Source: Escherichia coli (GTDB lineage: Bacteria; Pseudomonadota; Gammaproteobacteria; Enterobacterales; Enterobacteriaceae). Taken from it: a stretch of 64,000 bases of DNA. The notes under the pieces were generated by a model. It was not told the DNA's origin. It ran no database searches and was given only the letters and a program-made list of their open reading frames with translations. A program made the translations under genes and the position numbers. Below are positions 46,300 to 48,102 of this stretch, one piece after another (position 1 is the stretch's first letter; each line of letters starts with the position of its first letter). Location of the stretch: the NCBI RefSeq assembly GCF_003018115.1, contig NZ_CP027457.1; one strand, written 5' to 3'.

Positions 46300-47523
46300 T
46301 TATGGTATTATATTCTGATAATGATTTGATAAGCGAATTCTTTTACCAGATGGTATTTCTATTTCCACCCCATAATTTATATCTTTTTCATCAGGAAGTG
46401 GCCTCTTTAAATAAGGCGTGCGTGACATTTTTTTTGGGTTAAGCGTCTCGTATTGAAATACTTCGAATTGATATTCAGACATTTCTGCCCATGTTTGAAT
46501 TTTATTGTATCGGGAGAGTGTCGTAAAGGCTTTAACTTGCTTATAACATTGTTTTTGGAATTCTTGCTGATATTTTAATATGTCGTTGTATGAAAGATTG
46601 GTTATCCTGGCCTCTAAAAATTTAATTATTGTCGAAGCAATTTCCGCTTTTGCTCGTAAAAAGTTGTCATTAATGGTTAATAATGTTGAAAATAAACCTT
46701 CGATTTGTTTGTCAAGATATTGTTCGTCTTTATATAATTTTGGGGTAGGGTGTTCTTTATGTGAAAAAATAGTGTCACCTAAATTTGCGTCAGTGAAATT
46801 TATATTAAGTAGATCTTCGAAATAAAACCTTGACAAGGTTAGAACGAACCCGGACAGGTTCTGTCCTGTCATATTGAAATCAATAAAGTTGGTTCCGGCA
46901 AAGACTTTCATCCTGTTTTTATTTTCACTGTGCTCAATATATAACTTCGTCATTTTTTGATACAGGCTTTGAATATCTTTTATATTAGTCGGTAAGTCAG
47001 CTCGTTGTTCAGCAATAAAATTAGTATCTGAAAACATGGTTTGGACACTGAATCTTACTGGTATTCCCTCTTCTACGCTAATTTTAGTTATGATTGCCTT
47101 GTCGGGTTTAGGATTAGCGACAACAATGATTCGACATTCAGCACTTTTGTTCTTTTCGTATCTAATGTTATTAATTTGATTAAGTATTTCCTGTGCCTGC
47201 CGCGTAAGTGGTGTCGAACTTATCGATTCAATGTTAGTAATAAGACTTACAAGTTGAGCCACAACTTTTGAGTAGTCTGCATCTGTATATTTGGTGTTCA
47301 TGCGGCACGCATAAATTTGTGGGAGGTGTTGCCGCGCTAAATCAAATTGTTCAGGGTTGTATCCTTCTCCAGAGAATGTGGAATTAATGGGTTGTTGTTC
47401 TTCCCAATTATCACAAGGCCACTTCGGTGTGTCTGGCGTTTTAATATCGTCGGTATTTGTTGTGCGGTTATAAATATCACCGTGATATGTATTTATTATA
47501 ACTGGGGTAAAGTCAATTGACAT
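46300..47523 (-). CDS. yhiS: YhiS-like uncharacterized protein with pentapeptide-repeat-like segment
   Basis: 407-aa AT-rich ORF at the position of K-12 yhiS (IS5-disrupted there, by recall); internal A(D/N)LxG-type repeats ([23 protein letters not shown]). Confidence 0.7.
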
Positions 47524-48102
47524 AACATTCCTTATTCATCATCTGTTTATGCTAAGGTTTTTAAATTGGATAATTAGAACAGGAATGGATTTTCTTCTAC
47601 ACACAATAAATATAATGCGTCATATCTTCCTGATATAATTACCTTTAACTTCCCTTTCATTTCCACCCGGTAATATTTGTGTATAAAAAAAGGGCAGTGA
47701 TAGTATCGTAAAGGAAAACGTTAACAACTATCAAAAAGCGCTCATTTTAAAAAGTTATGATGTTCTCCGATAGTGTGTGAAATGATATTTTTGTGATGTT
47801 TTAGATGTGTAATAATGAACCAGATTAAAGTATATTTAAAAATGTGTTGTATTAGCGACTGAAATCTGCCCTTTAAAAGGAGGGATGGTACTGAGACAAA
47901 GAGACATTGCTTCTCCGATAAAATGTCAGAGAAGCATGATTACGTTGTTATTGTCTGTTGATGACTTACTGACCGGGCCGTCATCATTCTCAAGGCATTA
48001 GTTAAATCATTTGTGATTTTTAAGGATTATCCTATCTATGATTTTTTACTTAGAAGGATAAGACACTCACAATGCTCCTTATAGTTTACTGCTGGCAGCT
48101 AT

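Follow-up and report, generated by a model that had tools for sequence, protein, structure and literature searches.

Pentapeptide-repeat proteins (PF00805, COG1357 'YjbI'), among them Rfr32 (2f3l), Np275, MfpA and Qnr, carry five-residue repeats in tandem, centred on L/F, and Qnr and MfpA are built almost wholly of repeats. Another closely related system is the H-NS-bound promoter island, with its xenogeneic silencing of acquired AT-rich DNA. The arsC/yhiS spacer of Escherichia coli K-12 holds such an island of 470 bp, one of 78 listed and bound by H-NS in all studies compared, and a second one is found at insH11/slp, in the yhiS-slp spacer (Panyukov and Ozoline 2013, PMC3661553). StpA and H-NS also bind yhiS with high affinity in K-12 (bioRxiv 10.64898/2026.02.10.705075). 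The yhiS gene is split by the insertion sequence (IS) IS5 in K-12 and encodes a 371-amino-acid (aa) form in O157:H7, whereas the allele described here, located in a 64,000-nucleotide (nt) stretch of an E. coli genome (contig NZ_CP027457.1; hereafter the window), encodes the full 407 aa. A literature search found no functional study of intact YhiS. The reading that we favour, with a probability of roughly 55%, is that yhiS is an intact gene found only in E. coli and Shigella, which would be normally silenced, encode a binding protein with one pentapeptide module, and be dispensable.

Identity and composition of the yhiS locus

The open reading frame (ORF) is unbroken and begins with an ATG codon preceded by AAGGAA. 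Named homologs share 62-98% identity with its product over 100% of the length, one of them carrying the UniRef name 'YhiS', and K-12 yhiS shares 94.5% DNA identity with the window allele. The interval between arsC and slp, with or without a permease module, houses yhiS in every allele examined. Position and full-length similarity thus identify the ORF as an ortholog and an intact allele of yhiS, an already known and named locus. This agrees with a first-pass annotation made from the window sequence, which had called the product YhiS-like, named slp-dctR as neighbours and stated that the K-12 gene is IS-disrupted.

With a guanine-plus-cytosine (GC) fraction of 0.349 (0.311 at third codon positions), the gene is strongly AT-rich, as had been noted before. 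The window as a whole has a GC fraction of 0.499, arsC, arsB and chuA range from 0.51 to 0.54, and only 2% of 1224-nt segments have a GC fraction below that of yhiS. Values are also low in the gap at 47524-48102 (0.328) and in the spacer between yhiS and slp (0.301). The gene forms an AT-rich islet with sharp boundaries, set between the ars genes and the acid fitness island at its slp-dctR end.

Allelic diversity and selection

The most notable feature of the locus is its diversity. Alleles of yhiS at this site share 77-95% DNA identity (the near-identical allele of F9792, at 99%, was set aside), while in the same genomes slp is more than 99% and dctR 96.6-99.4% identical. Synonymous divergence (dS) reaches 0.09-0.61 for yhiS (0.01 in comparison with F9792), at most 0.04 for slp and at most 0.14 for dctR. 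The mean pairwise difference is 0.09-0.17 across yhiS and 0.06-0.12 upstream, and falls to 0.01 or less from about position 46130, leaving a diverse segment of about 1.8 kb that is 10-30 times more diverse than the adjoining slp. The window is identical to F9792 over 46300-47344; the adjoining tract, which spans 47345 to about 51860, is foreign and differs from this otherwise near-identical genome by about 110 substitutions and the permease module. One recombination breakpoint is located inside yhiS near codon 60, and the first ~60 codons of the window allele come from another allele class. The yhiS alleles are mosaics, and the diversity hotspot that they form has sharp bounds.

Balancing or frequency-dependent selection that maintains old, recombining alleles of a functional, normally silenced interaction protein in E. 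coli would explain a segment of this size and diversity. Such a protein could, for example, be delivered into host cells, or be aimed at phages or competitors. We consider this version of events quite unlikely.

Across comparisons with appreciable divergence, the ratio of nonsynonymous to synonymous substitution rates (dN/dS) of yhiS is 0.27-0.6 (about 0.4), with a minimum of 0.18-0.27 at residues 205-310, and the frame stays open at 407-410 codons in all eight intact alleles compared. These values mark yhiS as a real gene under moderate purifying selection, with a constraint that is relaxed relative to slp and dctR. They also bear on whether the ORF arose by chance in AT-rich noncoding DNA, for which one could cite its unusual composition, its lack of homologs outside one species and the absence of reported expression. 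A run of 407 open codons is unlikely at 35% GC (the median longest ORF in shuffled AT-rich neighbouring DNA is 46 aa), the frame is kept by alleles that have diverged to a dS of as much as 0.6, at a dN/dS below 1, a good Shine-Dalgarno sequence is conserved, and the repeat module has matches in a genuine protein family. A chance ORF, scarcely credible on these grounds, is in our view refuted by the dN/dS of the alleles, the regional constraint and the conserved 5' features.

Integrity of yhiS across genomes

We surveyed the integrity of yhiS in 60 evenly spaced genome hits among complete genomes. A colinear gene was present at 1224 nt in 20 and at 1221 nt in two of the 60 hits, and another 20 were off by 1-2 nt; all six cases of this last class that were checked proved to be true frameshifts. 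The gene was IS-interrupted in 6/60, cut to about 375 nt in 11/60 (ST131 among them) and partial in 1/60. Several of the inactivations arise by changes at homopolymer tracts: a deletion beside a T6 tract yields a 281-aa product and a poly-A insertion one of 327 aa. The sample suggests that full-length colinear yhiS is kept in about one-third of genomes and inactivated in about two-thirds. The window copy is intact, as the first-pass annotation had stressed in calling it worth attention, but such copies are not rare.

Individual genomes illustrate the losses. Nothing beyond the first ~375 nt remains of yhiS in UPEC129 (L011), where arsRB is also gone, and in ST131-type genomes, as judged by match length; in ETEC4090 (L012) the whole gene has been lost beside an IS1 element. 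RefSeq flags the intact 407-aa yhiS of F9792 (L004, 7704-8927) as 'frameshifted'. Its annotated end is that of the O157:H7 371-aa protein WP_001303709.1 (L013, 701-1816), which results from a changed A8 tract, so the label apparently stems from comparison with the O157 form. Therefore, 'frameshifted' labels for yhiS are unreliable.

Plain decay is the main rival explanation: yhiS would be a relic, useless in every strain, and the intact window copy would simply not have been hit yet. The frameshifts, IS insertions, truncations or deletions in about two-thirds of the sampled genomes fit this idea, as do the silent, H-NS-bound state of the region in K-12 and the looser constraint relative to slp and dctR. 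Neither a deletion in K-12 nor a clone overexpressing the gene gave a chlorhexidine phenotype (PMC8170033), though the K-12 gene is broken. Neutral decay, however, would give a dN/dS near 1 and stop codons, and the eight open alleles, which span a dS of 0.1-0.6 with the low overall and central dN/dS given above, count against it. So do the thousands of distinct member sequences in the intact 407-aa clusters and the invariance of the Shine-Dalgarno sequence and of blocks in the 5' region. We regard the relic as doubtful.

The YhiS protein and its pentapeptide module

YhiS residues 206-255 fall into ten uninterrupted pentads that have L/F/M as their central residue, preceded by N/D, and resemble the proteins of PF00805. 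None of 20,000 shuffles reached ten pentads (shuffle maximum, eight), which bears out the run of five-residue repeats reported earlier. The Pfam PF00805 model scored YhiS at 11.6 bits (E=0.22), below its gathering cut-off of 20.2 bits, and was matched weakly by 10 of 11 yhiS alleles (best E=0.037). A profile of the YhiS family matched more than 15 true pentapeptide-repeat members, all at residues ~204-277 and with library-wide E-values of 8.5e-9 to 8.6e-4, to which the numerous repeats of the targets contribute; against the PDB, it matched Rfr32 (2f3l) at E=0.0056. YhiS therefore has both the L/F-centred tandem pentads and the profile similarity to bona fide members. The profile match runs past the pentads into a conserved linker, mirroring the QLYSTxSYxDKxLxG motif of modular COG1357 proteins. 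The earlier description of YhiS as a pentapeptide-repeat protein holds for the repeat run itself, but only as a single short module of ~50-70 aa of the 407 aa; orphan sequence accounts for about 80% of YhiS, unlike in the known family members, and the beta-helix is putative.

Searches of the NCBIfam, PADLOC and PHROGs libraries with YhiS gave no matches and, together with the Pfam scan, they indicate that no enzymatic, defence or phage family matches the protein, in line with the statement that it has no obvious enzymatic motif. We saw no signal-peptide-like or hydrophobic membrane segment, and the product was read as soluble. Across 11 alleles, about half of the positions in residues 1-60 do not vary (dN/dS 0.40).

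Structure prediction was of limited help. A single-sequence AlphaFold model reached a predicted local distance difference test (pLDDT) score of 33 and was useless. The model built with a 109-row alignment had a mean pLDDT of only 49, and this alignment included true pentapeptide segments, which biases the repeat region. Fold searches with the model returned nothing significant, with MfpA and QnrB1 among the weak structural matches. A beta-helix at residues 206-255 is plausible. In the layout that we propose, an unstructured N-terminus would be followed by an orphan alpha/beta domain (~residues 81-200), then by the ten-pentad module, which would make ~2.5 turns of a four-sided beta-helix, the conserved linker and an orphan, mostly helical C-terminal part.

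This layout invites comparison with secreted host-interaction proteins of the PipB2/EspX type, which would be delivered by type III secretion and diversified by host pressure. The domain order is like that of PipB2 (N-terminal secretion region, alpha/beta domain, pentapeptide repeats), the N-terminus is predicted to be unstructured and yet has about half of its residues invariant, and the gene is AT-rich, species-restricted and of strong allelic diversity. However, YhiS has no sequence similarity to Salmonella PipB2, E. coli EspX or the type III pentapeptide effectors in general (PipB2/EspX/SopA), and its repeat block is far shorter than those of PipB2 and EspX. A PDB profile search with E up to 10 gave just two pentapeptide proteins, both non-effectors, no NCBIfam entry matched, and yhiS occupies one fixed chromosomal site with no adjoining secretion genes. 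We judge a role as effector very unlikely. A DNA mimic of the Qnr/MfpA type, protecting gyrase or blocking a DNA-binding enzyme, is highly improbable: pentapeptide repeats are the building block of Qnr and MfpA, and MfpA and QnrB1 appeared among the structural matches, but these matches were not significant, no NCBIfam family was hit, and YhiS has just ten pentads in 407 aa, most of which belong to other, orphan domains, rather than forming a long rod made almost wholly of repeats. Both readings are little supported.

Taxonomic distribution

All named YhiS homologs come from E. coli or Shigella. When 1.84 billion representatives were searched exhaustively with the profile, the result was one full-length cluster, its fragments, and large proteins matched only at residues ~204-277; all ten of these large proteins that were scanned were true pentapeptide-repeat proteins. 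The homology search that the first-pass annotation had proposed as a check for a well-characterised family thus led to a single E. coli/Shigella cluster of full-length relatives. Searches for yhiS in genomes of other species yielded only a 409-bp contaminant contig labelled Ensifer, phages gave no match, and the three matches in plasmids were all mislabelled chromosomes. These searches indicate that yhiS is restricted to E. coli and Shigella. The yhiS region thereby shows the two marks of acquired DNA that we looked for, AT-richness relative to the genome and a narrow taxonomic range.

Upstream region and regulation

The longest complete ORF in the 579 bp upstream of yhiS (47524-48102) is 38 aa long. 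The claim that this stretch has no ORF of at least 60 aa is thus correct but uninformative, since 81% of shuffles of the stretch also lack one (median longest ORF, 46 aa); therefore, the ORF-free state shows only that the DNA is AT-rich and noncoding. The stretch is AT-rich as described, but sequence comparison indicates that it is a composite, of which only about 47524-47816 is the 5' region of yhiS, the rest being the flank of the permease module. The 5' region has its homolog in K-12 within the arsC/yhiS spacer, where the H-NS-bound promoter island is located. Like the promoter islands, the window region is AT-rich (30-33% GC) and has its K-12 counterpart listed among them; unlike them, it shows no excess of promoter-like sites in a simple sigma-70 scan (12 against 9.1 +/- 3.0 expected). 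The proposal of H-NS silencing, for which chromatin immunoprecipitation (ChIP) data had been suggested as a check, agrees with the published K-12 data on H-NS at the arsC/yhiS spacer and StpA/H-NS at yhiS. In K-12, a YdeO site is located in the yhiS-slp spacer, and YdeO overexpression induced slp-dctR but not yhiS (PMC4222967).

The Shine-Dalgarno sequence of yhiS is invariant in nine diverse alleles, and the invariant 20-nt block TAATTATATCAGGAAGATAT (Table 1) is a possible cis element. A CATTCCT motif ~50 nt upstream is complementary to the Shine-Dalgarno region and kept in most alleles; its pairing could hide the ribosome site of yhiS. A conserved RNA structure in the 5' region was considered and rejected (covariation term +0.89, few compensatory pairs), and Rfam searches of 44500-49600 gave just two sub-threshold chance matches.

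Neighbouring genes and other features of the window

The genes around yhiS run in the order chuA, chuS, dctR, slp, yhiS and, beyond the 579-bp gap, the ArsP_1-family permease, a divergent ArsR-type regulator, arsC, arsB and arsR (Table 1). The chuA-chuS haem-uptake genes adjoin dctR, where K-12-type genomes carry yhiD-hdeBA; the acid fitness island is known to have a variable insertion here. The permease has a loop with three CC pairs and sits, together with the ArsR/HTH_20 regulator, between arsC and yhiS. In K-12 and F9792 this pair is missing except for remnants (62 bp and about 20 bp), so it was deleted in their lineages. An 11-bp terminator-like hairpin with a weak T run, 167 nt past the permease stop codon, is possibly the permease terminator. 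Further away, positions 52000-56000 match O169:H41-type genomes, F9792 for example, at 100% identity. This part includes an IS200/IS605 element (TnpB and a frameshifted tnpA) adjoining dinQ, whose full arrangement is shared by only 6 of 5,426 complete genomes.

Table 1. Coordinates of yhiS, its parts and neighbouring features in the window
Feature	Position	Strand	Remarks
chuA, chuS	41681..44740	+	haem uptake
dctR	44801..45331	-	
slp	45487..46053	-	
yhiS-slp spacer	46054..46299	-	30.1% GC; hyper-diverse segment ends inside at ~46130
yhiS	46300..47523	-	407 aa
A8 tract	46428..46435	-	coding nt 1089-1096; shortened in O157:H7, giving the 371-aa form
Central module, residues 206-277	46693..46908	-	ten pentads and linker motif; by shuffle test, profile matches, lowest dN/dS
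Ten pentads, residues 206-255	46759..46908	-	
T6 tract	46764..46769	-	coding nt 755-760; adjoining 1-nt deletion common in other strains, 281-aa product
N-terminal ~77 residues	47293..47523	-	predicted unstructured, pLDDT 22-45
yhiS 5' region	47524..47816	-	29.7% GC; common to all E. coli strains; limits by sequence match
Shine-Dalgarno region	47528..47533	-	
CATTCCT motif	47581..47587		
20-nt block TAATTATATCAGGAAGATAT	47622..47641	-	same sequence in 9 alleles, the most divergent among them
Candidate promoter TTGATA-18-TACGAT	47705..47734	-	invariant in 9 diverse alleles
Distal part of upstream stretch	47817..48102	-	3' flank of permease module; absent from K-12-type genomes
Permease module	47817..49552		
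Terminator-like hairpin	47908..47936	-	
ArsP_1-family permease	48103..49116	-	
ArsR/HTH_20 regulator	49235..49531	+	
IS200/IS605 element	52312..53958		

Interpretation

According to the favoured reading, yhiS and its 5' region would be kept silent by H-NS/StpA, as in K-12. Once expressed, YhiS would function by binding and not by catalysis, and its most constrained surface would be the repeat module. The gene would be dispensable and under weak or episodic selection, which would explain the old recombining allele classes alongside the frequent inactivation. Several points weigh against this reading. YhiS falls under the Pfam threshold for pentapeptide repeats, and the model of its fold is of low confidence and built on a biased alignment. 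H-NS occupancy is known from ChIP in K-12 only, and our literature search found no expression, localisation or interaction data on an intact yhiS allele. The combination of a dN/dS of ~0.4 with loss in about two-thirds of genomes is also compatible with a gene that is being lost.

We conclude that yhiS is mildly interesting and not remarkable, a known locus of modest interest. YhiS is a genuine species-restricted orphan, in which a single short pentapeptide module is all that can be recognised. Should the diversity of the locus reflect selection and not neglect, yhiS would allow the evolution of an orphan gene under silencing to be tested at little cost.
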